A DNA stretch of 64,000 bases from NCBI GenBank assembly GCA_964016885.1, contig OZ024748.1, forward strand, positions 43,338,001 to 43,402,000, given 5' to 3'. The stretch's first letter is position 1. Each line of letters begins with the position of its first letter. A program made the translations under genes and the position numbers. Shown here one piece after another: positions 5,401-51,449 of this stretch. Under the pieces are notes generated by a model. That model did no database searches. It was not told where the DNA came from and was given only the letters and a program-made list of their open reading frames with translations. The stretch is from Eledone cirrhosa (taxonomy: Eukaryota).

Positions 5401-7106
5401 TTTGAACGCCATTGGGGAATTATGGCTGATGATTTTAGGCATCATCTTCAGGTCGATGATGAAAATTTGATGAAAGCTATTGTTTTGCTCAATATTGAGC
5501 AACTGCTTGAAGTTCATTTCAAATGTTTAACAGATTTCAATTTGCCAATTCCTGATGAAGAAATGCGGCAACGTGTCTTAGCATTGAACATGAGATTGCA
5601 GCTTAGACGGTTGCCACTCGATCGGAGGGAACTATTCCAGTTTGATCCACTGGAACAGCAACGTATTGTGGATGAACGTATGCCAATGTTGACCCAATCT
5701 CAGAGAGAATTGGTCGATGGCGTTCCTCACTCGATTTCCACTAATGAGCAACTTTGTGCTTTCACAGATGCTCCAGGAGGCACCGGAAAGACATTCTGTT
5801 TCAACACTATGTTATCGGCAGTCAGAGCTCAGAGGAAGATTGCTCTCCCTGTGGCCACCAGTGGGATCGCTGCCACTTTGCTGAGTGGTGAAAGGACCTT
5901 CCACTCATGCTTCAAGGCTCCATTGGCTCCGGATAAGTTGAGTGTCTGTAACATTACAGGACAAAGTGAACTCGTGGGCCTTATACGCAATATGTCTCTG
6001 ATTATTTGGGACGAGGCTCCAATGGCACACAGATATTTGCTGGAGGCATTGGACAGAACTTTGAGAGATATCTGCGGTAGTGACCTGCCATTCGGTGGTA
6101 AGACTATCGTTCTTGGTGGCGATTTCAGACAGGTGCTACCAATTGTTTTGAATGCTCAAAGAGCGCAAATTGTCGATGCATGTCTGAAAAAGCCCCCATT
6201 GTGGCGCCATTTCAGAGTTTTGCGATTACACGATAATATGCGACTTCGTATGTTTGGGCAAAACGAAGAGGCTGAGACATACGGCCGATGGTTGATGCAG
6301 TTGGGAAACGATGAATTGCCACACGTTGGGGATAATCAGACTGTAAGAATCCCAGACCATTTGGTCATGCCACTGGACCGCCAAGCATTGATTGACTGGG
6401 TGTTCCCTAATTTGAATGCTTTTTGGCAGAATATCTCCTGGATATCGGAACGTGTTATTCTAACTCATATGAATGCAACGGTCGATGAAATAAATTCACA
6501 AGTAGCCGGAATGTTTCCTGGAGAGGAATGGTTGACCGTCAGTGCGGATGCAATGGAGCCTAATCAGCAGAACAATATGGATGTTCCGACTGAGTATCTG
6601 AATTCACTTCAAATACCCGGATTTCCCCCACATATTTTGAGGTTGAAAAAGGGTATGCCGATTATATTGCTTAGAAAATGGGTCTTTGCAATGGTACCAG
6701 ATTGATTGTTGAGAGATTGATTAATGGAAGAGTTTTAGAAGCTAAACTCCCAGGCAGAGAGGAATCGGTTCTCATTCCGAGGATCATGCTGAGACCAAGT
6801 GAAGATCTGCTGCCATTCATTTGGCAAAGGAGACAGTTTCCCGTCAATTTGGCCTTCTCCATGACTGTCAACAAGGCACAGGGACAGACTTTCAAGTGTG
6901 TCGGTGTCTACTTGAATGATCCAGCATTCAGCCATGGGCTGAATGTTGCTGCATCTCGAGTGTGCAATCCTGATGGTATAAAATTTGCAATTGATACCAC
7001 TAACAGAGGAACAACCCTGAATATTGTCTATAATGAAGCTGATGTATGCATATCATTAATGCTATCAATAAGCGACGTAAATGATTCGGACATTGGTGTC
7101 CTTTGA
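2458..7106 (+). pseudogene. Helitron Rep-Helicase (HUH endonuclease plus PIF1-like SF1 helicase), disrupted
   Basis: Rep motifs FITVTCNP, FQKRGLSHAHLLI, YLFKYVYKG. Helicase motifs DAPGGTGKT, IIWDEAPM, GGDFRQVLP, AFSMTVNKAQGQT. In-frame stops near 4030, 4102, 4324 and 5074; frameshift near 6677. Confidence 0.93.
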
Positions 7107-9086: not shown

Positions 9087-10395
9087 TCATCATCATCATT
9101 TTACGTCCGCTTTTCCCTGCTTGCAATGGTTGGATTGGTCCTATTCAGCATCTCTCCACTTGTCACGGTCCTTCGTCATCTCCACCGTGAGTTTCAGCGA
9201 TCTGAGGTCTGCTCTCACCACCTCCGCCCATGTTTTTCGAGGTTTACCTCTACTGCGTCTTCCCTCAACTGGGACTTCCTGGCACTTCTTCACCCATCAG
9301 TCATCTTCCATGCGCATCACATGTCCATACCATCTCAGCCTTCTCTCCTGCACACCACAACTTATGCCTCTGATACCTAGTTTCTTTCTCAACTCGTCTA
9401 TGCTTGGTTGTTCACGCACATTGACATTGCACATCAAACGGATCATGCTTGCTTCATTTCTCTCCAGCCGTCGCATATCTTCTGCAGTTGCTGCCCATGT
9501 CTCACTACCATGCAGCATCGCGCATCTCACACAGGCATCATATAACTGTCCTTTCGTATGCAGGGAGAAACCCTTCTTTGTCAACAGAGGAAGCAGCTCC
9601 CTAAACTTCTTCCAACCCATCCTTATTCTAGATACTATGGCCTCGGAACACCCCCCTCCCATGCTAATCTGATCACCTAGGTACCGGAAGCTATCAACCA
9701 CTTCTATAGAACCCACCTGCATTGGAAAAATGAGTCTATCACAGTGATGACTACTGCCAACTTTCCCTGTACATCTACTGCATACGTAGTTTTCCCTACC
9801 TGTTAGTTTGCCTACTATCCCACTACATCTCTTGTGTACCCAAAATCTGCATTGCGTACATTTTATGGAATTTATGCCAGTTCCTTTCCTACATATCGAA
9901 CATGGCCATTTTTCTGATGGAATCAGAGTATTGTCCTCTCTTCTACTTATCAACACTTTTGTTTTAGCTATGTTCACTTTCAGGCCTCTTGATTCCAACT
10001 GCTGTTTCCATAGCCAGAATTTATTCTCTACCTCCTTTGCTGATTCTGCTATAAGAACCAGATCATCAACATCGAGAAGTTCCCATGGGCATCCAGTCTT
10101 AAACTCCTCTGTTATGGCTTGGAGGACTATAATGAACAAGAGTGGGCTGAGGACAGATCCCTGATGTACTCCTACTTGTATCTGGAATTCCTCACTAAAC
10201 TCCATTCCTACCCTGACTTTACTGAGAGTACCTCTGTACAAAGTTTGCACTGTCCTCACAAGCCATTCCTCAACACCTAGTTTCCTTAGGGACCACCAGA
10301 TGACAGATCGGGGTACACTATCAAAGGCCTTCTCTAGGTCAACATAAGCTAAGGATAGTGGCTTATTCTTCTCTAAGAACCTCTCTTGTAGTTGC
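9087..10395 (-). mobile_element. RTE-clade LINE, 5'-truncated
   Basis: RT motifs DLEKAFD, GVHQGSVLSPLLF, (Y)VDD, FRYLG, RRLRWYGHV, and a (gat)n tail at about 9087-9100. Confidence 0.9.
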
Positions 10396-10671
10396 CTTAC
10401 TATATATATATCTATAAATATATGTGCATGTGTGTGTGTCTGTCTCAGTGTGTGTCTATGTGTGTGTGTTTGTGTATGTCAGTGTATGTGTCGGTATATA
10501 TGTGTATGTCAATGTATGTGTCGGTATATATGTGTATGTCAATGTATGTGTCTATAGTCAGTGTGTATATATGACAGCTGTCTCTAATACAGAAACAATG
10601 ACAATATTAAACATTAGTGAAGCTAACAATTATATACATGTTAGTATTTGTTTTATTCTTTTACTAGTTTA

Positions 10672-11555
10672 AGAGTGTGGCCATACTGGAGCACTGCTTT
10701 AAACAGTCCTAGTCTGTCATACACCAAAAGACTGTGGCCATACTGGGGCACTGCTTTAAACAGTCCTAGTCTGTCATACACCACAAGACTGTGGCCATAC
10801 TGGAGCACTGCTTTAAACAGTCCTAGTCTGTCATACACCATAAGAGTGTGGCCATACTGGGGCACTGCTTTAAACAGTCCTAGTCTGTCATACACCACAA
10901 GACTGTGGCCATACTGGGGAACTGCTTTAAACAGTCCTAGTCTGTCATACACCATAAGACTGTGGCCATACTGGGGCACTGCTTTAAACAGTCCTAGTCT
11001 GTCATACACCATAAGACTGGCCATACTGGGGCACTGCTTTAAACAGTCCTAGTCTGACATACACTGTGGCCATACTGGGGCACTGCTTTAAACAGTCCTA
11101 GTCTGTCATACACTGTGGCCATACTGGGGCACTGCTTTAAACAGTCCTAGTCTGACATACACTGTGGCCATACTGGGGCACTGCTTTAGACAGTCCTAGT
11201 CTGTCATACACTGTGGCCATACTGGGGCACTGCTTTAAACAGTCCTAGTCTGTCATACACCATAAAACTGTGGCCATACAGGGACATTGCTTTAAACAGT
11301 CCTAGCCAGTCATATTTACACCATAAGACTGTGGCCATACTGGGGCACTGCTTTAAACAGTCCTAGTCTGTCATACACCATAAGACTGTTGCCATACTGG
11401 AGCACTGTTTTAAACAGTCCTAGTCTTGTCATATTTACACCATAAAACTGTGGCCATACTGGAGCACTGTTTTAAACTGTCCTAGTCTGTCATACACCAT
11501 AAGACTGGCCATACTGGGGCACTGCTTTAAACAGTCCTAGTCTGCCATATTTACA
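10672..11555. repeat. 57-bp (some 49-bp) minisatellite, about 16 copies
   Basis: Unit gactgtggccatactggggcactgctttaaacagtcctagtctgtcatacaccataa in head-to-tail order, no spacers. Confidence 0.95.
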
Positions 11556-11674
11556 CTGATACTTATTTTATTGATTTCATTTTGTCAAACCACAAATATA
11601 AACAAATGATAGATGTAAGCACACACACACACACACATATATATATACACACACACACATGCATTGATTAAAGA

Positions 11675-16129: not shown

Positions 16130-16800
16130 TTTACAGTGTGTACTGAGTGCTTTTTGTCATGTCACCTACATGACCACTTTACAGTGTGTACTGAGTGCTT
16201 TTTGTCATGTCACCTACATGACCACTTTACAGTGTGTACTGAGTGCTTTTTGTCGTGTCACCTACAGGACCGCTTTACAGTGTGTACTGGGTGCTTTTTG
16301 TCGTGTCACCTACAGGACCACTTTACAGTGTGTACTGGGTACTTTTTGTCATGACTCCTACATGACCACTTTACAGTGCGTACTGGGTGCTTTTTGTCGT
16401 GTCACCTACAGGACCGCTTTACAGTGTGTACTGGGTGCTTTTTGTCGTGTCACCTACAGGACCACTTTACAGTGTGTACTGGGTACTTTTTGTCATGACT
16501 CCTACAGGACCACTTTACAGTGTGTACTGGGTACTTTTTGTCATAACACCTACATGACCACTTTACAGTGCGTACTGGGTGCTTTTTGTCATGTCACCTA
16601 CACGACCGCTTTACAGTGCGTACTGGGTGCTTTTTGTCATGACTCCTACACGACCGCTTTACAGTGCGTACTGGGTGCTTTTTGTCATGACTCCTACACG
16701 ACCGCTTTACAGTGCGTACTGGGTGCTTTTTGTCGTGTCACCTACAGGACCACTTTACAGTGTGTACTGAGTGCTTTTTGTTGTGTCACCATCACAACCA
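16130..16800. repeat. 48-bp minisatellite (about 14 copies) expanded inside an RTE/SINE-type 3' tail
   Basis: Unit tttacagtgtgtactgggtgctttttgtcgtgtcacctacaggaccac. It is preceded by the tail sequence gtttctacagctggaagcccttc and catcatcat-ttaacg on the minus-oriented element. Confidence 0.92.
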
Positions 16801-17398
16801 CTTTAGGGGAGGGGAAAGTCTATCTATGTGTCATCAACCCTGAAAAATTCATTGCTAGGGACATAGGCCATCCCCCAAGCTGCACTATCTTTGGTGATCC
16901 AGAGTCATTCGTGGTCCTAATTTTTCAATTTTCTGTGGTGACCACAGCAGAGTTATCCAAGGTGGATTTAGCCAGAGTGTAACAATTGCTATATCTCTGC
17001 ACTTAACTCAGCACATTGGTGCTATTGATGCTGCAGCTACTTCTGTCTGTGTGTGTGTGAGTCTCTGTGTGTGTGTGGTTGATAATTGCTAAGTGGTCTG
17101 CGGAGACACACCCACACTCACATATCATCATCATCATCATTTTATGTCTGCTTTTCCCTGCTTGCAAGGATATATATATATATATATACACACACCAACA
17201 TCTCACACTTGTGTATATATATATATATATATATACAAGTGTATATATATATAATTATACATACAAGTGTATATATATATACACAAGTGTGTATATATAT
17301 ATATATATATACACAAGTGTGTATATATATATATATATATACACAAGTGTATATATATATATATATACACAAGTGTATATATATATATATATATACAA

Positions 17399-18558: not shown

Positions 18559-19134
18559 CAAACAGAGCATGATGGCTACCCACTGTATAGGAGAAACAGG
18601 GCATGATGGCTACCCACTGTATAGGAGAAACAGGGCATGATGGCTACCCACTGTATAGGAGAAACAGACCATGATGGCTACCCACTGTATAGGAGAAACA
18701 GGGCAGGATGGCTACCCACTGTATAGGAGAACAGGGCATGATGGCTACCCATTGTATAGGAGAAACAGGGCAGGATGGCTACCCACTGTATAGGAGAACA
18801 GGGCATGATGGCTACCCACTGTATAGGAGAAACAGGGCAGGATGGCTACCCACTGTATAGGAGAAACAGGGCAGGATGGCTACCCACTGTATAGGAGAAC
18901 AGGGCATGATGGCTACCCATTGTATAGGAGAAACAGGGCATGATGGCTACCCATTGTATAGGAGAAACAGGGCATGATGGCTACCCATTGTATAGGAGAA
19001 ACAGGGCATGATGGCTACCCACTGTATAGGAGAAACAGGGCATGATGGCTACCCACTGTATAGGAGAAACAGGGCATGATGGCTACCCACTGTATAGGAG
19101 AAACAGGGCATGATGGCTACCCACTGTATAGGAG
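18559..19134. repeat. 34/33-bp tandem array (about 17 copies) inside the Helitron Rep coding region
   Basis: Unit gagaaacagggcatgatggctacccactgtatag, covering the DGYPLYR codons. Confidence 0.95.
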
Positions 19135-20553
19135 AAGAAAGCCAGAGGATGGTGGGAAAACACACACAGCCATTATAAGAGTCAGTGGTCAGCCAGAACA
19201 ATTCATTATTGACAACAGGTGGATTGTTGCGTACTGTCCTCTCCTCTCCAAAGCCTTCGATGTACACATCAACATTGAATTCTGCAATTCCATAAAGTCT
19301 ATCAAATATGTCAACAAGGGGTCAGACATGGCAGTGTTCAATCTTCAAGCACAGAATGGCAGAGATGAAGTGAAACAATACCAGAGTGATCGATACATAA
19401 GCAGCAATGAGGCCATTTGGCAAATTCTTGGTTTTCTACTTCATGAACGCCATCCTGCAGTCGAGCACCTGGCAGTGCATCTCGAAAATGGCCAGAGAGT
19501 TTTCTTCCATCCAGAACAGGCTGCTCAAATTGTTCAAGAACCATCGAAGAATACAACCCCTACGGCCTCTTTCAAGCTCTGCCAAGAAGACGAATTCGCT
19601 CAAACACTCTTCTATTGGCAACTTCCCCGCTTCTACACATGGAACAGACCAACCCGAATGTGGCAGCGTAGAAAGGCTGGCAAAGCAGTGGAAGGACACC
19701 CTCAAATCAAGTCAGCAGATGTTCTTGGAAGGGTCTACAGCGTCCATCCGACTCAGTTCGAGTGTTTCTTCCTAAGAATGCTCCTGTTCGAGGTTAGAGG
19801 ACCACAGTCTTTCCAAGATCTGAGAACCATCAATGGCCATCAATGTTCCACTTACAGTTTGGCTTGCCAGATGCATGGTATGTTACACGATGACAGCCAT
19901 TGGCACCTCACCCTGCAAGAAGCAGCAACTGCTAAAGTCCCTTCTCGGCTGCGAAAACCTTTTGCTATTATGCTGCACAACTGTGATCTCGCCGACCCTC
20001 TCGCACTGTGAAACAACCAGCATGAAAGTCTAGCTGAGGAAATCCTTCACCGCACACGCAGACACAATCCGAGCGTAACATACGATGTCGTTTTCAACGA
20101 GGCACTCATTTGTCTTGAAAACAGTGTCCTGGAGATTGGTGGTAGGCCTCTAAGTCACTACAGTTTACCTGCTCCTGACAGGAGTGACCAACGAACCCAA
20201 ATTGATCCATGATCAGCAACTGGCTTACAACACCATTGTTGATGATATGACAACTAACAAGGGTGGCCTCTTCTTCGTTGATGCTCCAGGAGGCACAGGA
20301 AAGACATTCGTCATCAACCTCTTACTTGCAACGGTGAGAAAGAACAGGTGGATCGCACTGGCCGTTGCTTCCTCTGGAATTGCAGCGACTCTTCTCTCCG
20401 GAAGTCACACCGCTCATTCCAGTTTCAAACTCCCGCTGAACCTTGCGAAGATTGAAACTCCAATCTGCAACATTCAACATGGAAGTGTTCTGGCTGATCT
20501 CATCAAGCAATGTCGCCTCATTCTCTGGGATGAATGCACTATGGCTCACAAAG

Positions 20554-20658
20554 GTACTTATTTCTAATTTGGGCGTCATTTTTTTTTCTATTTCTTTGTT
20601 TTTTGGCACTTTTGGCATCCTCCTATAATTCCTTTTCCATGTTTTTTTTCTCGCACAG
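20554..20658 (+). other. Spliceosomal GT-AG intron in the Helitron 2 helicase
   Basis: AAA G|gtactt...ttttttttctcgcacag|CT GCT TTT. Removal gives MAHKAAFEALDRTLQD, collinear with MAHRYLLEALDRTLRD in Helitron 1. Confidence 0.85.
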
Positions 20659-21492
20659 CTGCTTTTGAGGCGCTGGACAGGACACTGCAAGACATTTGAG
20701 GAAATAACTCCATCATGGGAGGTGTTACCTTCGTCATGGCTGGTGACTTCAGACAGACATTTCCAGTTATCCCTCGCGGAACTCGAGCTGATGAGGTGAA
20801 GGCATCAATTAAGTCTTCATACCTCTGGAACAAAATCTCAAAGCTCAGTCTGTCGACCAATATGAGGGTTCACCTGCATGGTGACCAACAAGCAGGAATT
20901 TTTGCACAGTACCTACTTGAGCTTGGAAGCAGGGCCACAAGTGCTGGCGATCGACTCATTGGTGTGGATGGAATTGGGATGGTTGTCCAGACAGAAGAAG
21001 AACTTTCATCCAAAGTCTTCCCACGGCTGTCTGAGAATTTCACTTGCCATGATTGGCTCTGTGAAAGAGCAATACTTGCACCAAGAAATTAGTGTCAGAG
21101 ACATCAACGATAGGCTTCTTAAGCAGATCCCTGGGCCTGTTCACACGTACCAGTCAATGGATTGTGTGGTTGACACAGATGTGGCAGTTCAATACCCAGT
21201 GGAATTCTTGAACGCTCTTGATTTGCCAGGAATTCCTCCACACTGGTTACAGTTAAAGCTTGGTTCCCCTATCATCCTGCTGCAAAATCTGAACCCACCA
21301 AAGCTCTGCAATGGCACACGACTTGCAGTGAAGCAGATACTGCGTCATGTCATTGAAGCCACAATCATGACTGGAGTTGGTAGGGAAGATGTATTTATTC
21401 CTCGCATCCCATTGCTGCCAGCCAACTTACCCTTTGAGTTCAAGCGACTTCAATTTCTAATAAGACTAAGCTTCGCAATTGCCATCAACAAT

Positions 21493-21838
21493 GGAGGCAC
21501 ATGGCTTAGTGGTTAGAGCATTGGCCTTGCAATCGAACGTTGTGGGTTCAATTCTTAGACCGGGTGATGTGTTGTTTCCTTGAGCAAGACACTTTATTTC
21601 ACATTGCTCCAGTTTACTCAGCTGTAGAAATGAGATGATAGGGACTGGGGGTCCATATCATGCCACTGCAAAGTGGTCGTGGATATACCACGGCAAAAAA
21701 GCACCCAGCCCACACTGTAAATGAGGTTGGTGTTAGGAAGGGCATCCAGCTGTAGAAATCAAGCTAGAATCAGTTCCCGTCCCACCCTTGCAAGCAGGGA
21801 AAAAGCGGACGTAAAATGAAATGATGATGATGATGATG
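21493..21838 (+). mobile_element. Full-length tRNA-derived SINE (family B) inserted in the Helitron helicase motif INK/AQGQ
   Basis: ggaggcacatggcttagtggttagagc head, B-box gggttcaattct, RTE-like tail gttaggaagggcatccagc...(gat)n. Near-identical copy at 38550-39003. Confidence 0.88.
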
Positions 21839-22654: not shown

Positions 22655-22739
22655 ATATATATATATATATATATAACCCATGCTAGCGTGGAAGATGGAC
22701 GTTAAACGAAGATGATGATATATATATATATATATATCA

Positions 22740-23775
22740 CCAAAGGATACTAGCTCCTTCTATTGCCCAGATGGTTCTATAGAAATAGTAGACACTTTCC
22801 GTTACCTGGGTGACAAAATCAGCAGTGGTGGAGGGTGTTCTGAAAGTACAGTAGCCAGAGTCAGAACGGGATGGAAAAAGTTCAGAGAGCTTATACCGCT
22901 GTTGGCCACAAAAGGTTTCTCTCTAAAAATGAAAGGCAGATTGTATGATGCCTGTATACGAACAGCAATGCTAGATGGCAGTGAGTCACGGGCATTACGT
23001 GTAGAGGACCTGCGCAGACTGGAGAGAAACGAAGCTTGCATGCTCCGTTGGATGTGTAATAGTAATATACGTGAATGGCAAAGCATAAATGAACTAAGTG
23101 AGAAATTAGGAATAAGAGGGATCAGATGCTGTTTACTTGAGAGAAGACTACGTTGGTATGGTCACGCTTGAAAGACGACAGCTGCATAAAAAAGTGTAGG
23201 GCGAACAAAATTGATGGTAGTTACGGAGTTGGTAGACCCAGAAAAACCTGGGATTATCTGATAAATTCCGACCTCACACACTTACATCTCTCTAAGACAA
23301 TGTCTCTGGACCGAGATCTTTGGTGCTACGCAGTAATACAGAAGACCCGCCTTGCCTATGTACAAAGCGAAACCTACAGACAGTAGGCACCTCTAACAAA
23401 AATACACCCCCGCCCCACCTACAGTCAGTAGGCACCTCTTGACCAAATATACACCCCAATCCACTACCCCTACCCTATCCTCCCACTCCCACCAACAGCA
23501 CAAGAAAATGAGATCGAGATCGTGTAGGTGTCACGAGAAAAAACACACAGTCCACGCTGTAATGTGGCCGTGTAGGTAACACGGTAAAAACCTCCCAGTC
23601 CACACTGTAAATGTGGTTGGTGTTAGGAAGGGCATCCAGCCGTAGAAAACCTGCCAGATAGTCCTATATGAGCGAGACACGGTCACCCAACCAGCCTTGC
23701 CTCAAGCGGGACAACTCCCGTCTAACCCATGCTAGCGTGGAAAATGTACATTAAACGAAGATGATGATGATGATA
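22740..23775 (+). mobile_element. RTE LINE 3' fragment
   Basis: FRYLG, GWKKFREL, RRLRWYGH, GRPRKTW; 3' UTR and (gat)n tail as in 34521-37262. Confidence 0.88.
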
Positions 23776-25849: not shown

Positions 25850-26881
25850 AGATTTTATATGTGGCCGGTGCTCTGGTGCAATAAGTAGCAGCAAGTGCCC
25901 ACAGAATACTAGCTCATTCCATTGCACAGATGATGGTTCTATAGAAATAGTGGAACCTGGGTGACAAAATCAGCAGTGGGGGAGGGTGCTCTGAAAGTAC
26001 AGTAGCTAGAGTCAGAACGGGATGGAAAAAGTTCAGAGAGCTTATACCACTATTGGCCGCTAAAGGGTTCTCTCTAAAAATGAAAGGCAGGTTGTATGAT
26101 GCCTGCATACGAACAGCAATGTTACATGGCAGTGAGACCTGGGCATTGTGTGCAGAGGATATACGCAGACTGGAGAGAAACAAAGCTTGCATGCTCCACT
26201 GGATGTGTAATAGTAATATACGTGAACGGCAAAGCATAAACGAACTAAGGGAGAAATTAGGAATAAGAGGGATCAGATGTTGTTTACTCGAGAGAAGGCT
26301 ACGTTGGTACGGTCACGTGATGCGCATGAAAGATGACAGCTGTATAAAAATGTGCAGGGCGATAAAAATAGACGGTAGCCACGGAGTAGGCAGACCCAGA
26401 AAAACCTGGGACGACTTGAGAAATTCCGACCTCACACACTTACACCTCTCCAAGACAATGTCACTGGACCGAGATCTTTGGCGCTACACAGTAATACAGA
26501 AGACCCGCCTTGCCTAAGTACAAAGCGAAACCTACAGTCAGTAGGCACCTCTAACAAATTACACCCCCGTCCCACTACCCCCCCACCCCATCCACACCAC
26601 CCCCTTAAATGTGAAGTTATGTTGGTACCACAACATCCAGTCTGAAACAAATGAGGTCGTGTAGGTGTCACAACAAAAAAACACACAGTCCACGCTGTAA
26701 TCTGGTCGTGTAGGTAACATGGTAAAAACCGCCCAGTCCACACTGTAAACGTGGTTGGTGTTAGGAAGGGCATCCAGCCGTAGAAAACCCGCCAGACAGT
26801 CCTGAGCAAGACAACCAATCTTGCCCCAAGTGGGACAATTCCCGTCCAGGCCCATGTTAGCGTGGAAAATGGATGTTAAAC

Positions 26882-27273: not shown

Positions 27274-27332
<59 letters not shown>

Positions 27333-27410
27333 ATATATAGAGAGAGATAGAGATAGATATATAGACATGTAGATAGATATATAGATAGGTAGAGATAGAT
27401 ATATACTTAC

Positions 27411-27599: not shown

Positions 27600-28720
27600 T
27601 TATTATAATGATAATGAAAATTACTGTTTACAGTGCTCAGGTGCACTACAACTCATCAAAGGTGTATGTATAGTACATAGAATAATGTACAAATGTCAGG
27701 AAAGTGAACAATGTCTATGTCATGATATACACACAGATACATGTGTGTGTATGAAGGGGGGGATATCAGGTGTAGTGTTGGCGAATTTCAGGAAGCATGG
27801 AGGTTTTAAAGGATGCAGTGTCTCGACAGCTAACAACTGATGCAGGTAGTTTGTTCCATGAAGGTTTTAAAGGATGCAGTGTCTCGACAGCTAACAACTG
27901 ATGCAGGTAGTTTGTTCCATGGAGGTTTTAAAGGATGCAGTGTCTCGACAGCTAACAACTGATGCAGGTAATTTGTTCCATGGAGGTTTTAAAGGATGCA
28001 GTGTCTCGACAGCTAACAACTGATGCAGGGAGTTTGTTCCATGGAGGTTTTAAAAGATGCAGTGTCTCGACAGCTAACAACTGATGCAGGTAGTTTGTTC
28101 CATGGAGGTTTTAAAGGATGCAGTGTCTCGACAGCTAACAACTAATGCAGGTAGTTTGTTCCATGGAGGTTTTAAAGGATGCAGTGTCTTGACAGTTAAC
28201 AAGTGATGCAGGTAGTTTGTTCCATAGAGGTTTTAAGGATGCAGTGTCTCGACAGCTAACAACTAATGCAGGTAGTTTGTTCCATGGAGGTTTTAAAGGA
28301 TGCAGTGTCTTGACAGTTAACAAGTGATGCAGGTAGTTTGTTCCATAGAGGTTTTAAAGGATGCAGTGTCTCAACAGCTAACAACTGATGCAAGTAGTTT
28401 GTTCCATGGAGGTTTTAAAGGATGCAGTGTCCTGACAGCTAACAACTGATGCAGGTAGTTTGTTCCATGCTTCAACAAATCTGAGTGTGAAAAAATCTTT
28501 CCGAAAGTCATGGGGAAGCTGTGCTGTTTTCTGACTTTGTAGGCATGTCCATGGGTGATAGACACATGGAATTCAAAAAGGTGCTCAGGGTTGTTGGCAA
28601 AATGGTAAATAATCTTGTGGGTGTCTACAATGACAGTTGCCAGATGTCATAGCTTTAATGCATCCATGCCCAGGGAAGCAAGGCATTCAGAGTATGGTAG
28701 ATGCCTGATTGAGTGTATGA
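27600..28720 (-). mobile_element. CR1-clade LINE 3' fragment with internal 61-bp tandem expansion (about 11 copies, 27790-28480)
   Basis: Minus-strand translation HGHAYKVRKQH...FFTLRFVEAWNKLPASVVSC..ASFK fits the CR1 ORF2 C-terminus. Repeat unit ggaggttttaaaggatgcagtgtctcgacagctaacaactgatgcaggtagtttgttccat. Confidence 0.78.
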
Positions 28721-29290: not shown

Positions 29291-29329
29291 CTAGAAAAAG
29301 AGAGAGAGAGAGAGAGAGAGATATAGATA

Positions 29330-29970
29330 TGTTTCTTTATTAGCCACAGGTGCACAAAAGAAGGGGACAATACAAAGGGGGAAATATATAGATATGTTTC
29401 TTTATTAGCCACAGGGGCACAAAAGCAGGGGACAATACAAAGGGGGAAGTTTACATACAATAAAAACGTGTAAAATACTATCACAAATGCAATTTAAAAA
29501 TTAATCGATTTTCCCCAATAGGGGGAGACATTACATATGGGTAACACATACCCCCGAAAAATGTGCTACCCTCATCTCCAGGAGATAGATAGATAGATAG
29601 ATACATTTCTTTATTAGCCACAAGGGCACAAAAGAAGGGGACAAATACAAATGGGGAGTTTACATACAGGTATATGAAAATAAAACTATTAATACAATAA
29701 CAAATAACAATTGAAATCCCCAATAGGGGGAGGTGTTACACAGGGGTTGTACACACCCCGAACAAATGTACAACCCTCATCTCCAGGAGCACCAAGAGTG
29801 AGTACTCCATTCCTCTTTTCCTCTTTTTCCTCAACCTACAGGCTTATATAGAGAGAATGCCCAACCACTCGAGCCATCTTTGCCACATTCACCCACCTTT
29901 TATAAAATTTGCTGGGGTACAGCACCTCTCTCTCTCCATCCTGATTCTTCTTCCAAAATGATATTTGAAA
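29330..29970 (-). mobile_element. Three short 3'-end copies of an L1/Tx1-clade LINE (29330-29385, 29395-29583, 29604-29970)
   Basis: Each has tttctttatt..cacaaaag..gggacaa.tacaaaggggg homologous to the 3' UTR of 29995-32563. They are separated by (gata)n-like tracts. Confidence 0.8.
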
Positions 29971-29994
29971 GATAGATAGATAGATAGATAGATA

Positions 29995-32563
29995 ACTTTC
30001 TTTTTATTTGCCACCAGGGTGTCAAAGAGTGGGACAAGTACAATGGGGGGGAGTTTACATAAAGAGGCGTCCTCAATAAGGAGGAGGCAATAACAAAATA
30101 TAAAAATATAAGATATAAAATATAACAAAAACAAATTGAATAACAAAATCCTCAATAGGGAGGAGGCGCCTTGGGGGTCGCACACACCCCTGAAAAAGTG
30201 TGCAACCCTTCTCCTCAGGAGCACAGAGAGAGGGTGCTCCCTTGATCTCTCATCTTTCTCACCTACAGTCTGATGTAGAGTGAAGGCCCATTCACACGGG
30301 CCATTCTCGCCACTTTCACCCATCTTTCATAAAAACAAATGGGGTGCAGCACCTCTCTCTCCATCCTGATCCTTCTTCCGAAATGATATCGGAAGAAACG
30401 GACCAGTTGTTGGCCAGAGAGAAAGGTGTCTGACCTCAGTCCTTTCAGACGCGTCCACCATACAACCTCTTTCGCCATGGCTATTACGCACAGAAACACC
30501 GCCTCTCCTTCGTTTTTGAAAAGGGGAGGTGGCTTGATCGTTACAATAGACTCGGTGGTCAACCGGATTGGTCCCACCCTTGACAGCAGTTGTTCGACAT
30601 AGCCCCACAGATCGGCAATGCCCGAGCAGTGTACCAATGTGTGTGCGACGGTTTCCTCGTCGCACACGCATCTGGGACAGATCTTTTTCGAGGGGTCCCT
30701 ACCCGGGCGCCCGTGTCTGTAGAGCCTTTCTCGAACGGGCAGAGCCCTTCTGTAGCATTGCCAGGCCAGGGACCTCTGGAAGTTATCCATGGGTCCCGGG
30801 CTGAATGTCCTACCGAACAGGTTGGCCAGTTCGTCTTCCTCCATGCCTAGGGCTTCTCCGAGGGCGTCGTCGCACCTGCTAACCACCAGCCCTCTATAGA
30901 ATGACGAGGTGGATTCTCCACTGACAGCCGGGTCCGCCTGCCAGAGAGCCGTGAGCGCCTGGGCACACTCGGTGTGCCAGGCGCCCAGTTTTCTCGGTCT
31001 TTGCTTGACCCAGGATTGCAGCTCGGTGAGTGAGACTAGTCTGGGAAAGGCTCGCCTCACAAACGGGGCCCACACCGGTTGACCGGAGAGGAATACCTGA
31101 AGGTGCCGTAGCCACGGCATCTCCAGCCCTCCTTTCGAAGGGTGTTGACAGCAGATGGATCTCCTCACCATAGGAGCCCGCTTCTTCCAAAGGAATTGGA
31201 AGAGTGCACGCTCCATTTTGGCGAGTGTTTCCCTTGGGCAAGGCACAACGGTCAGGCGGTAGTAGATGACGGACGCTATATAAGTGTTCGCCACCTCCAC
31301 CCGACCTTTCAGGGACAGTTTGCACTCGGCCCACTTCTGGGTCAGTGCAAACACCCTGTTCGTTACCTCACCCCAGTTCTTCTCCACCTGGAGGTCTGGT
31401 CCGAACCAGACTCCGAGCAACTTCACCGGGCCCTCCGTCCAGCGCCCGACGACGCCATCGGAGGGTATCGATCTGCCCCTCCACGTGCCGAGTTGCAGAC
31501 CCATCGACTTGTCCCGGTTCAGCTTAGCCCCTGTAAACCTTTCGTACTCCTCCAGTAAGGTGCCGATCGCCCCGATTTGCGAGGCCGTCGACACCATTAC
31601 TGTCACGTCATCGGCGTAGGCTGACACCGCTTTCCGCAATCCCGGTTCCAACGGGATGCCCTGCAACAACTCCAACTTCTGCAGCAGTGGCTCTAGAGTC
31701 ATCACATACAGAAGGGAGGAGAGAGGGCACCCCTGTCGGATGGACCGCGCGATTTCGAACGGCTCCGAGAGGTAGCCGTTCACCTTGACCCTAGAGCAGA
31801 TGCGGCTGCTGTGCATGGCATTGATCCAGTCCCTGAAAACAGGTCCGAAGCCTGCCGCCGCTAGCACCGCATCCAGGTAACCATGGTCGACCCTATCGAA
31901 TGCCTTAGATTGATCCAAGTTGATCAGGGCCCCACCAAAGCCGATGTATCGCATGAGGTGGAGGTTGTCGTGGATGGACCTGGACGGGATAGCACATGTC
32001 TGCGCATCTCCCACCAGGTTGCCCACGACAAGCGCCAACCTCTTTGCTAGCACCTTGGCCAAAATCTGTAACTCTGTATTTAGCAGAGTTATGGGCCTGA
32101 AATTATTTATATCGTCCCCCTTGTTCTCGTCCTTCCTCACTAGCGTGACTACGCCCTTGGTCACAGCACAGGGAATTCTCCCGTTCTGTTGCCAGTTGCA
32201 GTAGGCCGCCTCGAGGAGATCGGGGAACAAGTCCGGCATAGCTAGATATAGTTCGTATGGAAGACCATCGAGACCCGGGGATTTGCGTTTGCCGCATTGG
32301 CTCAGCACGTCCTCTATCTCAGCGGCTGAAATCGGCTCCTCGCAGGACTTCGCCTCCCTGTCCTAGAGACGCGGCAGGCCGTCGAGGTATGGACCGAAGT
32401 CCACATCCCCAACCGGCCCCCTGCCCCTTCTGAACAATCCGGCAAAGAGCTTTTGAAAAGCCTCACACATCTGCTTCGGTTCAAGGATCACCCGTCCATC
32501 CTGGTCTCGCAAAAACCGGATAGTGGATCTGCTCCCTCTTTTGGCTTCTGTCACGCGGGCCCA
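29995..32563 (-). mobile_element. L1/Tx1-clade LINE, 5'-truncated (ORF2 RT plus CCHC)
   Basis: ORF 30263-32308: KSPGLDG, FRPITLLN, LDQSKAFDRVDH, IRQGCPLS, AYADD, CPRCVCDEETVAHTLVHC. AATAAA followed by a (TATC)n tail. Confidence 0.92.
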
Positions 32564-32639
32564 GCTAACAGATAGATAGGTATAGATAGATAGATATAAA
32601 TAGATAGATATAAATAGATAGATATAAATAGATAGATAT

Positions 32640-33862
32640 ATTTCTTTATTTACCATAAAGGCATAAAAAGAAGGGACAAATACAAAGGGGGAGTTTACAT
32701 ATAATCGAGTAAAAAGGGTGTAACATGAAAATAATCGAAAATAACCTCAAAAGGGAGGGGACGTGATGGGGGTTGCACACACCCCCGAAAAAGTGTGCAA
32801 TCCTTTGCCCGGGGAGCACATGGAGAAGGTGCTCCCCTCTCCTTTACTTCTTTACCTACAGGATGGTATACAGAGAAGGCCCATTTACACGAGCCTTTCT
32901 CGCCACTATCACCCACCTTTCATAAAACTGCCTGTGGCCAAGCACCTCTCTCTCCATTCTTATCATTCTTCCGAAGTGATATCGGAAGAAGTAGACCAGA
33001 CTATGGCCAGAGAGGAAGTTGCCTGACCTCAGACCTTTCAATCGTGTCCACCAAACAACCTCTTTCAACATGGCTATTACGCACAGAAAAACCACCTTTG
33101 CTTCCTTTGTGAAGAGGGGAGGCGGTTTGATTGTCATCACGGACTCGGCGGTTTGATTGTCATCCAGCCTCTGAAAACAGGACCGAACCCAGCCTCTGAA
33201 AACAGGACCGAACCCAGCCGCCGCTAGCACCGCATCCAGGTAACCATGGTCGACCCTATCGAAGGCCTTAGACTGATCCAAGTTGATCAGGGCCCCACCG
33301 AAGCCGGGTTTGTTGCCAACCCTCTCTATGATGTATCGCATGAGGTGGAGGTTATCGTGAATGGACCTGGATGGGATAGCACATGTCTGCGCATCTTCCA
33401 CCAGGCCACCCACGACAAGCGCCAACCTCTTTGCTAACACCTTGGCCAAAATCTTTAACTCTGTGTTTAGTAGGGTTATGGGCCGAAAATTATTTATACT
33501 ATCTCCCTTGTTCTCGTCCTTCCTCACCAGCGTGACTACGCCCTTGGCTACAGAACAAGGAATTCTCCCGTTCTGCTGCCAATTGCAGTAGACCGCTTCG
33601 AGGAGTTCGGAGAATAAGACCGGCATTGCTAAATAAAGTTCGTAAGGTATACCATCGAGACCTGGAGATTTGCGTCTGCTGCATTGGCTCAGCGCATCTC
33701 CGATCTCATCAGCCGAGATTGGTCCCTCGCAGGACTCTGCCTCTTCGCTCGAGAGACGCGGTAGGCCGTCGAGGTATGGACCGAAATCCACGCCCCCGCC
33801 CGGACCCTCGCCTCCCCCGAACAATCGGGCAAAGTGTCTTTGAAAGGCCTCGCACATTTGCT
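32640..33862 (-). mobile_element. Second L1/Tx1 copy with a large internal deletion
   Basis: ORF 32856-33857 joins the AFDRVDH region directly to the C-terminus. Short direct duplications occur at the junction (33120-33215). Confidence 0.88.
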
Positions 33863-34366
33863 TAGATAGATAGATAGATAGATAGATATAGACAGAGATA
33901 GATAAATATATAGATATATATAGATAGGTATATATTTAGAGAGAGATATAGAGATAGATAGATATAGAGAAATAGAGATAGATTGGGGTGGGAGGAGGAG
34001 ATCGGTAGAGGAAGGGATGAGAGGAGGAGGAAGAGAAGGCCAGATAGAGTGAGAGTTAGAAACAAATATAAAACAGTATAAAAAGACAGAGATAAAAGTT
34101 TGGAGAGGGAGAAAGAGATAGAGACAGAAAAATGTAGAGAGAGGGGGTAGGGGCAAAAGATAAGGAAATTGAAATAAAGCAGACAGACAGCTACGAAGAA
34201 AAGTCAAAAATAAGCTGTATGGCTTTGACAAAGATCAAGTTAATAGATAAAGAGCTTAGAAAGGCTGAAAGTTGAAGGAGTTAGGTTATATAAAGCAAAC
34301 AAAATTGTTTGTCTAAGAAATCTAAAAATGAAGTCTTCTAGTAATTTAATGAGACTGACTACTTAA

Positions 34367-37300
34367 CTCTTTAGCATTTACATTACTCTATATATACTAT
34401 TATATTTTCATGGTAAAGGCTTTACCTCAAATAATATCTCTCATAACATTACATTACTCTATATATATTATTGTATTTTCATGGTAAAGGCTTTACCTCA
34501 CATAATATTTACATTACTCTCATCATCTTCGTTTAACGTCCATATTCCACGCTTGCATTTGTTTGGACGGGAGTTTTCCCACTTGAGGCAAGAGTGGTTG
34601 TCTTGCTCGTATAGGACTGTCTGGCAGGTTTTCTACGGCTGGATGCCCTTCCTAACACCAACCACATTTACAGTGTGGGACTGGGAGGTTTTTACCGTGT
34701 TACCTACACGGCCACATTACAGCGTGGACTGTGTGTTTTTTTGTCGTGACACCTACACGACCTCATTTGTTTCGGCCTGGATGTTGTGGTACCAACATAA
34801 CTTTACATTGAAAGGGGTGGTGTGGATGGGGTGGGGTAGTGGGACGGGGTGTATTTTGTTAGAGGTGCCTACTGACTGTAGTAGGTTTCACTTTGCACTT
34901 AGGTAAGGCGGGTCTTCTCTATTACTGTGTAGCGCCAAAGGTCTCGGTCCAGTGACATTGTCTTGGAGAGGTGTAAGTGTGTGAGGTCGGAATTTATCAA
35001 GTCGTCCCAGGTTTTTCTGGGTCTGCCTACTCCGTGGCTACCGTCTATTTTTATTGCCCTGCACTTTTTTATACAGCCGTCGTCTTTCATGCGCATCACG
35101 TGACCATACCAACGTAGTCTTCTCTTGAGTAAACAACATCTGATCCCTCTTATTTCTAATTTCTCCCTTAGCTCGTTTATGCTTTGCCGTTCACGTATAT
35201 TACTATTACACATCCAGCGGAGCATGCAAGCTTCGTTTCTCTCCAGTCTGCGTATATCCTCTGCAAACAATGCCCAGGTCTCACTGCCATGTAACATTGC
35301 TGTTCGTATGCAGGCATCATACAGCCTGCCTTTCATTTTTAGAGAGAACCCTTTCGCGGCCAATAGTGGTATAAGCTCTCTGAACTTTTTCCATCCCGTT
35401 CTGACTCTAGCTACTGTTCTTTCAGAGCACCCTCCCCCACTGCTGATTTTATCACCCAGGTAACGGAAGCTGTCCACTATTTCTATAGAACCATCTGTGC
35501 AATGGAATGAGTTAGTATTCTGTGGGCACTTGCTGCTACTTATTGCACCAGAGCACCGGCCACATATAAAATCTATATTCTTAGTTAGCTTACCTGTGAT
35601 CCCACTACATCTTTTATGTACCCATACTTTGCATTTGGGACATAAAATGGAGTTTCTACCTACTCCTTTCCTACACACTGAGCATGGCCATTTCCCAGAT
35701 GGGACCGGTGCCCTATTTTCCTTCCTACAAACTAGAACTTTAGTCTTAGACAAGTTAACTTTAAGGCCTTTTGATTCTAGGCCATGCTTCCATGTTTGGA
35801 ATTTTTTCTCTAGTTCAGCCATTGATTCAGCTATGAGCGTTAGATCATCTGCATATAGGAGTTCCCATGGGCAGCCGGTCTTGAACTCCTCTGTTATAGC
35901 CTGAAGGGCAATAATAAATAGTAGGGGGCTAAGGACGGAGCCCTGATGAACACCAACTTTTACGCTAAACTCTTCACTATATTCGTTGTTAATTCTAACC
36001 TTGCTGACTGTTTCTTTATACATGGCTTGTATAGCTCTCACAAGCCATTCATCAACACCCAGTTTTCTAAGAGCCCACCAGATAATGGAGCGGGCTACTC
36101 TGTCAAAGGCTTTCTCCAAGTCAACAAAAGCTAAGTATAGGGGTTTACTTTTAGCTAGGTACTTCTCCTGTAGTTGTCGTACAATGAAGAGAGCGTTTGT
36201 TGTACTTTTACCTGACACAAACCTGAACTGCATTTCATCTAGATCAATTCGCTCTCTGATTAGTTGTGCTATTACTTTTTCTGTGACCTTCATGACCTGG
36301 TCAATTAATTTAATGTCTCTATAGTTTCCCCTATCTAGGGCATCTCCTTTACCCTTGTAGCAGTTAATGATGATGCTGCTGCGCCAGTCCTTCGGAACGA
36401 CCCCATTCTGTATGACTTGGTTTACTATCCGGGTGACCATAGTGTGTCCCACCATTCCAGATGCTTTCAGCATTTCGGCAACTATTTCCAAAGGCCCGGC
36501 CGCCTTGCCCGTATTCATGTCTTTGATCGCCTTACTTATTATACTACCTTCAACTTGCACTGCTGGTCCCTCTATTGGGTCGATGTGGGGGAGACTGTCT
36601 TTCTCCCAATTATTCTCCTCATTTAGTAGCCTTTCGTAGTGACACTTCCAAGCTACCTTCTTATCAGAGTCAGTGATGGCAAGTACACCATCATCATTTA
36701 GGACACACTTCTCCCCGACAATATCACTGTTTTCCTTGACACATTGCCTGGCAATCCTGAACACCTCACGTTTTTGGTCCTCGCGTTGTAGAACATGCTT
36801 GAACTTTCTTTCCTCTGCTTCCCTTCTTGCGAAGTACACTTGTCTCCTAGCTTCCCTCCTGGCCACTTGATAGTCTTCTCTACTTCCCCCATCCCGCCAT
36901 GCTTTCCAAGCCTGCTTTTTGGTCTTGATTGACCTCTCCACCTTACTGTTCCACCACCAAGTTACTCTCCTCCTGCCTATAGGCCTGCTCCAGCCACAGG
37001 TTTCATCTGTCGCCTTCAGCAGGTTAGCTTTCTGGAATTCCCACTGTTCCTCTATATTGTACGACTCTAATTGCTCTTCCTTACTATCAAAAGCATCAAG
37101 TAATATGCTTTTAAATTTATGACTGGCTGTGGGGTCCTTTAATTTCCATATTTTTCTCCTGAGGATAGTCCTCTTCTGTTGTCGAATACGTCTCGTCCTG
37201 ACTATGAGGTCGCTAATTATGAGTCTATGTTGAGACGTGCATTCTTCATGGGGGAGGGATTTAGTATTATATTTTCATGGTAAAGGCTTTATCTCACATA

Positions 37301-42625: not shown

Positions 42626-43670
42626 TTTACTGTAAACAGTGTTTACAGTAAATATGTGACTATAAACAAACTAGTGTTCACTGTAAATATGTGACTGTAA
42701 ACCAACTAGTGTTCACTGTAAATATGTGACTATAAACAAACTAGTGTTCACTATAAATATGTGACTATAAACAAACTAGTGTTCACTGTAAATATGTGAC
42801 TATAAACAAACTAGTGTTCACTGTAAATATGTGACTATAAACAAACTAGTGTTCACTGTAAATATGTGACTATAAACAAACTAGTGTTCACTGTAAATAT
42901 GTGACTATAAACAAACTAATGTACACTGTAAATATGTGACTATAAACAAACTAGTGTTCACTGTAAATATGTGACTATAAACAAACTAATATTCACTGTA
43001 AATGTGTGACTATAAACAAACTAGTGTTCACTATAAATATGTGACTATAAACAAACTAATGTACACTGTAAATATGTGACTATAAACAAACTAATGTTCA
43101 CTGTAAATATGTGACTATAAACAAACTAGTGTTCACTGTAAATATGTGACTATAAACAAACTAATGTACACTGTAAATATGTGACTATAAACAAACTAGT
43201 GTTCACTATAAATATGTGACTATAAACAAACTAGTGTTCACTGTAAATATGTGACTGTAAACCAACTAGTGTTCACTGTAAATATGTGACTATAAACAAA
43301 CTAGTGTTCACTATAAATATGTGACTGTAAACCAACTAGTGTTCACTGTAAATGTGTGACTATAAACAAACTAGTGTTCACTATAAATATGTGACTGTAA
43401 ACCAACTAGTGTTCACTGTAAATATGTGACTATAAACAAACTAGTGTTCACTATAAATATGTGACTGTAAACCAACTAGTGTTCACTGTAAATGTGTGAC
43501 TATAAACAAACTAATGTACACTGTAAATATGTGACTATAAACAAACTAATGTTCACTGTAAATATGTGACTATAAACAAACTAATGTTCACTGTAAATAT
43601 GTGACTGTAAACAAACTAATGTTCACTGTAAATATGTGACTGTAAACAGTGTTTACAGTCACATATGTGA
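42626..43670. repeat. 35-bp minisatellite, about 28 copies
   Basis: Unit aatatgtgactataaacaaactagtgttcactgta, bracketed at both ends by ctgtaaacagtgtttacag palindromes. Confidence 0.95.
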
Positions 43671-49291: not shown

Positions 49292-50019
49292 ATATATATA
49301 TATATATATATTTATCGGATTTCCAACAAATTAAATACCCCTTCTACTTATATTTTTATATATATTTGTGATTCTTAAAGAAAATAATTGTTTCTACTTT
49401 AGGCACAAGGCCAGCAATTACCCAGTGCATTACTGGTACTTTATTTTATCGACCCTGAATACAAAACATGGGATTTCTTTCAGATTTGACAGGGTTCGTA
49501 GCATTAGTACCTTTACCGAAATAAGGCTACTACTACTACTACTAATACGACGACCTTAAAAGTAAACAAATCAGAGAATTTAACAGAATTAAAAGAAGAC
49601 AACGAACTGTGTATTTCTCATAAGATTGTATTTTCTTACAATGATTGTTCTAAAGTTTAGAAATAAGATACTGACGCTAGAACAGAGAACACATTTCCTA
49701 CCGGCTTTGGCTGCCTTGATAAGTAAATATTGGAATTGTTACGAAGACTTTCGCTGACATTCGCAGAAATGTCAGAGCAGCTTTGAAGACAAATATATAC
49801 AATACTTGATTCTGCTGCAAAAAGAATTTATTTACCATTCACTGACGAATATATTAAAGAAAATTCGTGAAATAAATTAAGAATCTCTTCAGGTGTCTAC
49901 AATAATAAATCGAAGCTTAATATTGAAATAATTTCAACGAAAGTCATGTCCTCATGTCCTGAGTACAGCCTTAAAATAATCGATAAACAAAATAGAATAA
50001 ATAACACATTGATACACAC

Positions 50020-50382
50020 CCATGATGGTAGATCTTCCACCCGAGCTAGTATGGATTTCTTCTCGGAACGGGCCGCAGTCTGCGCAATTTCGATTTGCAT
50101 ATCTCTGACTTGGGAATATCTTTCTCTCCATAAATACACAAAAAGTGCCAGTAATAACCAGCTGAAACTGAAGTTGAAATAACCGACAAGCCATATTACG
50201 AAAACAAGAAGGGCCAACTTAAAAAATCGTTGCACTAACGACAATACCATCGTATCGTCAAAAGAAGAATTTTTCGCTTCTTCTTTTGGTGCTTCTGTAG
50301 CTTCATTTTGAGATGTGGAACGAGAAGGAGCTGCTGGTTTAGACACAGCCGCTTTAGAGGCAGGCTTTTCTGCTTTCGACAT
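50020..50382 (-). CDS. ESYT2: Extended synaptotagmin (ESYT2-like), first coding exon: N-terminal tail plus hydrophobic membrane hairpin
   Basis: Translation MSKAEK...LALLVFVIWLVGYFNFSFSWLLLALFVYLW...ARVEDLPSW matches the E-Syt N-terminus. It is followed by a GT donor (gtgtgt at 50019); 363 nt, phase 0. Paralog number is uncertain. Confidence 0.88.
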
Positions 50383-51449
50383 TTCTGTCTGACAACTTTC
50401 GTCACACTGCTTCAGCTAAACGTCTCGCCAACCAAAGCACATTCGACAAGGTGCGCGGTCAAACAGGGGAGATCACTCAACACAGACGAGATTTTACTAG
50501 CTTATAATTCTATTAATAGCGAGACATTTGTCTGAGCACGTTCAATTTTATTTCACTTTAAAACCCTCAAACATTTAGCTATTTAAGACTACGATTATTT
50601 TATGAAAATAAACTTATAGTGACTATCGTCTCCTTTTATGGAAGTCTTCCTTGTTCATCCTACACTATACTTTTAAACCTATAGTTAGTCTTATCTATGC
50701 TCGACTGTAGTCTTTCGAAGAATCTGATTTCACTACAGTCGCCTGCTTGTTCTCTCTCTCTCTCATACACACACATATACACACGTGTGTGTGTTTGACT
50801 CTCTCTCTCTCTATCTATCTATCTCACATACATATTGTGTGTTTGCTCCTCCCCCCTCTCTCTCTCTTTCTCTCTGTTCTGCCCAAAGGCCAAGCATGTC
50901 TTATGCAGGATTTGACTGCTTTGAATAAATTCTTTGAAACCCATTCACAAAATCAACAAAGAAAATAGACAATACTAATAATAATATAAATGTTTCGGAA
51001 AGAAGAAAAACAAAGACACGGTCATTTCATTGAAGTAAACATTACATTACATGACAAGGATGAAAGGCAAAGTTAAACTCAAATCCCGCCTTTCATCCTT
51101 ACGGGGTCGATAAAATAAAGTACCAGTCATGTAATGGATTATTGCTGGCCTTGTGCCAAAAGTAGAAACAATTACTTTACATGACAAAAAGACACGCCGG
51201 AAATTTCAAGAAACCTCTCTCAATCCCCGCAAAATACTCGATACAACCGAGATGTTGTATTTGAAATTAGAGACCTGCTACGCTGGGTCACGGTGGACCA
51301 CTTTCCTCGCTAGCAGAACTCAAGATATAGGAGGTGTAATTGCAACACAGGAATGGATCAGACCACCCCGACTGATGTCTTCGTTAATTCTCCTGTCTTA
51401 GGCTGGTACTTTGTTTAACGAATCAGAAAGGGGTGGTGGTGTCTATTGT

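Follow-up and report, generated by a model that had tools for sequence, protein, structure and literature searches.

Stacked Tx1-like LINE copies in a (TATC)n tract of Eledone cirrhosa and the question of how they chose their site

Introduction

Why should several copies of one long interspersed nuclear element (LINE) lie head to tail, all in the same orientation, inside one short simple repeat? Our study addressed this question in a 64,000-nucleotide stretch of Eledone cirrhosa DNA (assembly GCA_964016885.1, contig OZ024748.1, forward-strand positions 43,338,001 to 43,402,000; hereafter the window, numbered from its first letter). Its minus strand carries, between 29330 and 33863, five 5'-truncated copies of a single Tx1-like LINE lineage arranged head-to-tail, which we call c1 to c5. 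A sequence-only reading of this DNA had proposed a (TATC)n-specific family whose tail regenerates its own target.

Microsatellite targets have been described within the Tx1 clade, whose families insert into (TC)n, (TTC)n, (TTCC)n or (TTTC)n, the last two being the sites of crocodilian families (PMC4494074), and which includes the teleost elements Kibi, on (TC)n, and Koshi, on (TTC)n (PMC4494074; PMC3812793). Waldo/Mino, Dong, Togen and some HERO elements target microsatellites in other clades (PMC3812793; PMC4640811), and the mechanism has been called not well understood (PMC3812793). The criterion applied to a target-sequence preference in PMC4494074 is more than 20% of flanks. In Octopus vulgaris, L1-Tx1 elements abound and have been active until recently: 13 families and 421 recent insertions are reported (PMC13282606), in a paper whose main text does not contain the term 'target site'. 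Further literature was used for comparison (PMC10294476; PMC10088271; PMC6515669; PMC4889948; PMC3747384). Among the papers listed by literature searches, none dealt with a (TATC)- or (GATA)-targeting Tx1 element or with cephalopod Tx1 arrays, and Repbase Reports or the figures and supplements of PMC4494074 may already list such a target.

Results

The stack is a genuine multi-insertion assembly of a cephalopod-associated Tx1-like LINE, in which insertions followed one another at one site, all in the same orientation and with a fixed phase at both types of junction (Table 1). The five minus-strand, differently 5'-truncated copies of the sequence-only reading are all present, and its statement that the window holds no other copy was borne out by blastn, tblastn and nhmmer, the last with a hidden Markov model of the five 3' ends. 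Beyond these copies, the searches gave just a weak cross-match of the reverse transcriptase (RT) with an RTE element, some non-significant scraps and a weak reverse-strand self-match inside c4.

The copies had also been described as mutually diverged. This is true of c2 to c5, which are 62-77% identical to each other over their aligned 3' parts, but not of c1 and c2, which form a 65-bp tandem at 96% identity. Between c4 and c5, the ratio of nonsynonymous to synonymous substitution (dN/dS) is 0.115 in the RT (175 codons, with 12, 10 and 40 mismatches at the first, second and third codon positions) and 0.27 in the C-terminus of open reading frame 2 (ORF2; 93 codons), at a dS of 0.45-0.54. Since these differences fall mostly at third codon positions, the signature of purifying selection, c4 and c5 come from separate active source lineages, and c2 to c5 are independent insertions. 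Of the 17 nt before the 5' end of c1, 16 are identical to the corresponding positions of the 17 nt that follow its AATAAA; whether c1 is a tiny re-insertion with a target site duplication (TSD) of about 17 nt or one half of a 65-bp tandem duplication is about an even choice. The safe count is four independent insertions, with c1 as an uncertain fifth.

A motif search of both strands of the window gave five matches, all of them the 3' ends of the copies, which read AATAAA-(AA)-GAAA-NN and then TATCT; the two bases between GAAA and TATCT vary (CA, CA, TG, GT and TA). None of the five copies has a poly(A) tail in the DNA of the kind seen in mammalian-type L1. The earlier description of each copy as ending in AATAAA and (TATC)n-like sequence is correct as far as TATCT is concerned, but the tracts 3' of c1 and c2 are imperfect and only 9-11 nt long, that of c1 passing into (CT)n. 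Similarly, the 5' ends had been said to adjoin (TATC)n, and c2 to c5 are indeed directly preceded by ...TATCT, while c1 is preceded by ...TATAT. The phase is thus the same after GAAA-NN in 5/5 copies and before the 5' end in all four clearly independent ones, each pattern having a chance of about 1/64 if four phases are assumed to be equally likely. Microhomology at the 5' junction consists of CT at c2, against the c3 sequence; at c4, TCT in the flank is in frame and codes for Ser, the same residue that P0367, the closest relative, has at this point. The perfect (TATC)6T 5' of c5 has no element 3' end before it and must therefore be target or TSD rather than the tail of a recognisable copy, and the varying bases before TATCT are more readily explained by RNA-templated ends than by repeated duplication of a single founder TSD.

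On the plus strand, every perfect (AGAT)n tract of at least three units lies inside the stack. Outside the stack, a single one of the 111 perfect 2-4-mer tracts of at least 12 nt is AGAT-type (50810-50824), with no insertion in it, and the 12 perfect AG-type tracts hold no copies either. Because AGAT-type repeats are so rare in the window, it is unlikely that a founder hit one by chance. Under uniform placement, the probability of four independent copies in a common 279-bp tract is about 1e-7; for the whole genome, the expected number is 2e-6 if there are 1e4 copies and 0.02 if there are 1e5, values that depend on these assumed copy numbers and on an assumed genome of 2.5 Gb.

Table 1. Parts of the stack, listed from the 5' to the 3' end of the minus strand (UTR, untranslated region)
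Feature	Position	Strand	Length and description
Host tract	33864..33983	(-)	120 bp; degenerate TC/TA/TATC, final perfect (TATC)6T at the 5' junction of c5
Copy c5	32641..33863	(-)	1223 bp, 5'-truncated; N-terminal part of RT, ORF2 C-terminus and 215-bp 3' UTR
Linker c5-c4	32570..32640	(-)	71 bp; degenerate (TATC)n, 14-bp higher-order repeat
Copy c4	29995..32569	(-)	2575 bp, longest copy; 268-bp 3' UTR
Linker c4-c3	29970..29994	(-)	25 bp; perfect (TATC)6T
Copy c3	29604..29969	(-)	366 bp; about 37 final ORF2 codons and 3' UTR
Linker c3-c2	29583..29603	(-)	21 bp; perfect (TATC)5T
Copy c2	29395..29582	(-)	188 bp; 3' UTR only
Linker c2-c1	29384..29394	(-)	11 bp, imperfect; 17 nt if counted from the end of AATAAA
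Copy c1	29330..29383	(-)	54 bp; 3' end of the element
Right flank	29299..29329	(-)	9-nt TATC-like stub, then (CT)11

The ORF2 remnant of c4 (30263-32569) encodes RVT_1 (E=1e-25) and zf-RVT (E=2e-5, below the curated cut-off; motif CX2CX8HX4C), with one in-frame stop at 32363-32365 and an 8-codon gap in the RT relative to c5. In c5, an internal deletion has removed 1,266 c4-equivalent bases and left a 25-bp duplication at the join (33164-33219). The region around this join (33122-33219) shows that tandem duplication with a repeat of about 18 bp close by, which suggests that the template was switched in the course of reverse transcription or repair.

The proteins closest to c4 reach 61-69% identity over most of its length, the best credibly named one being from Argonauta hians (61%), and P0367 reaches 75%. 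Two further relatives, P0008 and P0151 (62-64% to c4), are deposited as Herbaspirillum proteins from a 1.8-kb contig and probably stem from host DNA that was placed in a bacterial bin. The c4 RT scores 207 bits against Xenopus Tx1 ORF2 (P14381; 36% identity) and 129 bits against human L1 ORF2p, in keeping with the Tx1-like identity first proposed for the stack, and the top Atlas cluster for c4 is named after TX1. An RT tree, one of the checks put forward with the sequence-only reading, was built from 42 hand-chosen rows, with an RTE-like element as outgroup and without c5, Pelobates, Leptobrachium, near-duplicates or any identified L1 reference; it followed a quick 77-row tree that carried a long-branch warning. 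It places c4 with 100/100 support in a clade of 13 rows, of which the named ones are from Argonauta and Sepia pharaonis. This clade splits into the window's subclade and a sister subclade that includes the families of loci L001 and L012. Xenopus Tx1 and the zebrafish pol-like protein BAC82613 fall in other starred clades, above a base that is an open polytomy. Joining the window's clade to that of BAC82613 is not rejected (p-AU 0.122, approximately unbiased test), where BAC82613 is not tied to a family name and none of the sequences in the tree was identified as Kibi or as Koshi. The element works in the manner of a Tx1 and likely belongs to the Tx1 clade, in that scores favour Tx1 over L1, with the base of the tree polytomous. 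A single-sequence scan of genome contigs confirmed no second locus of the window's subclade among 83 matched stretches, and a tblastn search of plasmids gave no match to the element.

An alignment scan of contigs recovered the sister subclade at 38 loci (L001-L038) on 16 contigs (CAXXMW0100000xx), all from one 'Arenicella' metagenome-assembled genome (MAG) that is a GTDB representative. Judged by their content, LINE arrays and (AT)n/(AC)n flanks, these contigs are apparently animal DNA binned with a bacterium. The sample is biased, as it comes from a single MAG and binning would favour array-rich contigs. What the host flanks of L010 and L014 have in common with the window is limited to simple repeats and a single weak match of 30 bp, so the relatedness of the sister host rests on protein similarity, the sister elements being 42-43% identical to c4.

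The sister units, of 6.4-6.8 kb with two ORFs, run head-to-tail over tens of kb, with nine 3' ends on one 91-kb contig. In full-length elements, ORF1 contains a zinc knuckle, and ORF2, of 1155 aa, combines apurinic endonuclease-like (APE), RT and zinc-finger domains. The N-terminal APE endonuclease is truncated away in all five window copies; PF03372 was found in the sisters L012 and L001. A CCHC zinc knuckle in ORF1 is a feature of the Tx1 clade, and the three sister ORF1s scanned all match zf-CCHC, one of them below the cut-off; the window contains no ORF1. Another copy follows each of the 50 distinct sister 3' ends, and poly(A) is visible at none of these 50 junctions. Stacking is therefore a trait of the lineage.

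After AATAAA, sister units are separated by linkers of about 17-20 nt, which contigs of one group have in common and which bear no relation to those of other groups. Endonuclease identity is 100% among contigs of one linker group and 92-96% between groups (11 of the 16 contigs have a complete endonuclease), the L001 family standing apart with 44-47% identity to the remaining sister families. The linker is retained before two differently 5'-truncated copies (L023 and L029), and also stands before the first copy of two arrays, with no AATAAA upstream (L014 and L010). By analogy, this pattern is that of a TSD re-duplicated at every insertion, as in R1, other tandems of elements lacking long terminal repeats (non-LTR) and SINEU-3. 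ORF2 is 99.4-100% identical within a linker group, and L023 has two identical truncated units side by side; such near-identical neighbours show that DNA-level expansion occurs as well. At L012, L013, L015, L020, L024, L031 and L034, ORF2 and the 3' UTR are 99.6-100% identical while the variants of the 5' UTR and ORF1 share 63-84%, which suggests either swapping of 5' modules or homogenisation of ORF2 within arrays.

Two hairpins directly precede AATAAA in the sister 3' ends (L014:7413-7466 and equivalents). Among 10 sequences, 2 of 11 consensus pairs are changed on both sides, and the covariation term is negligible. A five-base loop with a short G-C closing stem occurs in all listed sister variants, and a five-base loop with an inverted stem lies 10 nt before the end of AATAAA in 4/5 window copies, c2 to c5, this motif having been chosen post hoc. 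Folding did not show a hairpin in the 3' ends of c1 to c5, whose z values are mixed (0.07, -0.47, -1.83, 1.00 and -2.96). The loop motif is a lead, rather than a result, hinting at 3' recognition of the stringent type.

The rest of the window holds other repeats and one probable host exon. LINE copies that we take to be RTE-like lie at 34899-37274 (-), 9297-10478, 22719-23171 and 25951-26517, the longest with an RT and a PHD-finger match. Two decayed Rep-helicase regions on the plus strand, at 2455-7106 and 19064-21516, with a PIF1 match at 5077-6702, are presumably Helitron-like. A broken non-LTR element with an RT occupies 54303-57323 (+), and its tail is a putative restriction-like endonuclease. 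A frameshifted gag-pol region at 59537-63450 (-), read from translations, is by our assumption Ty3/Gypsy-like. The probable host exon (49897-50415, minus strand) encodes a hydrophobic hairpin and presumably resembles the N-terminus of extended synaptotagmin, an assignment unconfirmed by Pfam and Atlas. Minisatellite arrays lie at 10670-11556, 16130-16805, 18560-19136, 27796-28469 and 42634-43648, with periods of 57, 48, 34, 61 and 35 bp, respectively.

Discussion

The convergence of subfamilies at a dS of about 0.5 on one tract, the scarcity of this repeat across the window and the variation in the two bases that precede TATCT together lead us to favour, with some reserve, the view that this element family prefers (TATC)n. 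Several observations weigh against such a preference. It is drawn from a single locus, and the window has two TATC-like tracts that are empty, at 50799-50824 (three perfect units at 50810-50824) and, in degenerate form, at 27274-27405. The sister subclade stacks without any microsatellite, (TATC)2 following 0/50 of its 3' ends; with non-repetitive linkers in those arrays, stacking by itself is no evidence of microsatellite specificity. For the window's own subclade, the endonuclease recovered is the C-terminal half only, from P0367. Lastly, a translated (TATC)n run was found in 0/453 fetched proteins, a weak test in that ORF calls rarely reach the flanks.

According to the mechanism that we propose, at least four diverged subfamilies would have inserted in succession, by target-primed reverse transcription, into one host tract containing TATC. 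The nick would fall on the strand reading (AGAT)n, and the RNA would end shortly past AATAAA, probably with a read-through (UAUC)n tag that would pair with the nicked strand and prime synthesis. The truncated cDNA would then be joined to the second strand at ...TATCT, with 1-3 nt of microhomology. Each insertion would leave (TATC)n on both sides, as the TSD plus any copied tag, so that the target would be regenerated and the stack could grow. The sequence-only reading had assigned this regeneration to the tail, but a pre-existing target with its TSD explains the (TATC)6 5' of c5 at least as well. The endonuclease and the RNA tag are about equally good candidates for what chooses the site.

The strongest competing explanation, unlikely in our view yet deserving serious attention, is that the lineage recognises its own 3' end or linker, re-inserting just after the AATAAA of a copy and duplicating the following 17-25 nt or so. 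The TATC linkers would in that case reflect only the founder site of this stack, lengthened later by slippage. Self-recognition of this kind would account for the unbroken succession of copies at the sister 3' ends, for array-specific, unrelated linkers despite such similar endonucleases, for the linkers before truncated copies and before the first copies of arrays, and for the c2-c1 spacing, which at 17 nt from AATAAA is the same as in the sister arrays. However, it requires that the founder landed in a rare repeat type (1/111 perfect tracts), and the bases after GAAA vary among the window copies, with no single repeated TSD. Moreover, the sister arrays are homogeneous in ORF2 while the window stack has gathered diverged subfamilies, and the comparison is with distant elements from one biased MAG.

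A more speculative possibility, to which we give a rather low probability, is that specificity resides in the 3' tag of the RNA and not in the endonuclease, the transcript gaining about 15-25 nt of downstream flank that would guide priming at matching DNA. Such a flank would come with every transcript, since the element has its poly(A) signal right at its end. A founder in unique DNA would then home to its own junction and give rise to a private array with its own linker, like the sister arrays, and a founder in (TATC)n would give rise to a heritable microsatellite-targeting family, like the window stack. A read-through tag would in this way reconcile the (TATC)n preference with self-recognition, and the modest likelihood that we attach to this reconciliation overlaps with that of both.

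It is improbable that (TATC)n is just an element-encoded 3' tail, of the kind found in many LINEs that seed microsatellites, with copies gathered passively in an open or tolerant spot. Perfect (TATC)5-6 does stand directly 3' of c3 and c4, and Waldo-A/B have been proposed to accumulate passively near microsatellites (PMC3812793), but such a tail leaves the zero spacing, single orientation and fixed 5' phase without explanation, faces the chance estimate of about 1e-7, and does not provide for the perfect tract 5' of c5, which no element precedes. Hardly credible at all is an origin of the whole stack from one insertion by tandem duplication or unequal exchange at the DNA level, an outcome that the sequence-only reading had named among those that would refute it: c1 may be a duplicate of this sort, and the sister arrays have near-identical neighbours, including the twin truncated units of L023, but c2 to c5 are too diverged, with a 5' breakpoint of their own in each case, and the mostly synonymous c4/c5 divergence, as a signal of purifying selection, rules duplication out for them.

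Like Kibi, Koshi and the crocodilian Tx1 families, the window element is a Tx1-like APE LINE in a pyrimidine-rich microsatellite, and it differs from them in its repeat, (TATC)n rather than (TC)n or (TTC)n. Its lineage forms, in the tree, a separate, long-stemmed clade in which the named members are only cephalopods, and ORF2 in its full-length relatives is about 1150 aa, compared with 1284-1308 aa in two named vertebrate references. With Xenopus Tx1 it shares RT homology (36% identity), but that element belongs to another starred clade and targets the DNA transposon Tx1D, as described in the text of PMC4494074. Waldo/Mino, Dong, Togen and HERO are comparable in using a simple repeat as a safe multicopy target, but belong to other clades and use other repeat units, and neither (TATC)n nor (GATA)n is among those listed in the text of PMC3812793 and PMC4640811.

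For the stacking itself, the nearest parallels are Drosophila R1 arrays and non-LTR tail-to-internal tandems, in which insertions are separated by TSDs (PMC5932611), and the tandem SINEU-3 driven by Tx1-Mar (PMC4494074). As these sources describe them, they share sequential insertion at the same site, distinct 5' truncations, TSDs at the junctions and later unequal exchange. R1 differs in having one fixed target in ribosomal DNA, whereas each sister array has its own unrelated linker and the window stack lies in a microsatellite.

Among the known repeat targets, (TATC)n would, provisionally, be new for a Tx1-type element. If this targeting held genome-wide, the Tx1 elements that target microsatellites would gain a new repeat as well as an invertebrate lineage, and a class of flanks that recur at GATA loci of cephalopods would be explained. 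Taken together, the stack and the sister arrays, with their unrelated linkers and near-identical endonucleases, make it testable whether APE-type LINEs owe their choice of site to the endonuclease or to the 3' end of the RNA. Should the RNA tag prove to be the guide, the element would write its own target choice, which could in principle be programmed by way of that 3' end, and RNA-guided site choice of this kind would be relevant to LINE-based insertion tools.

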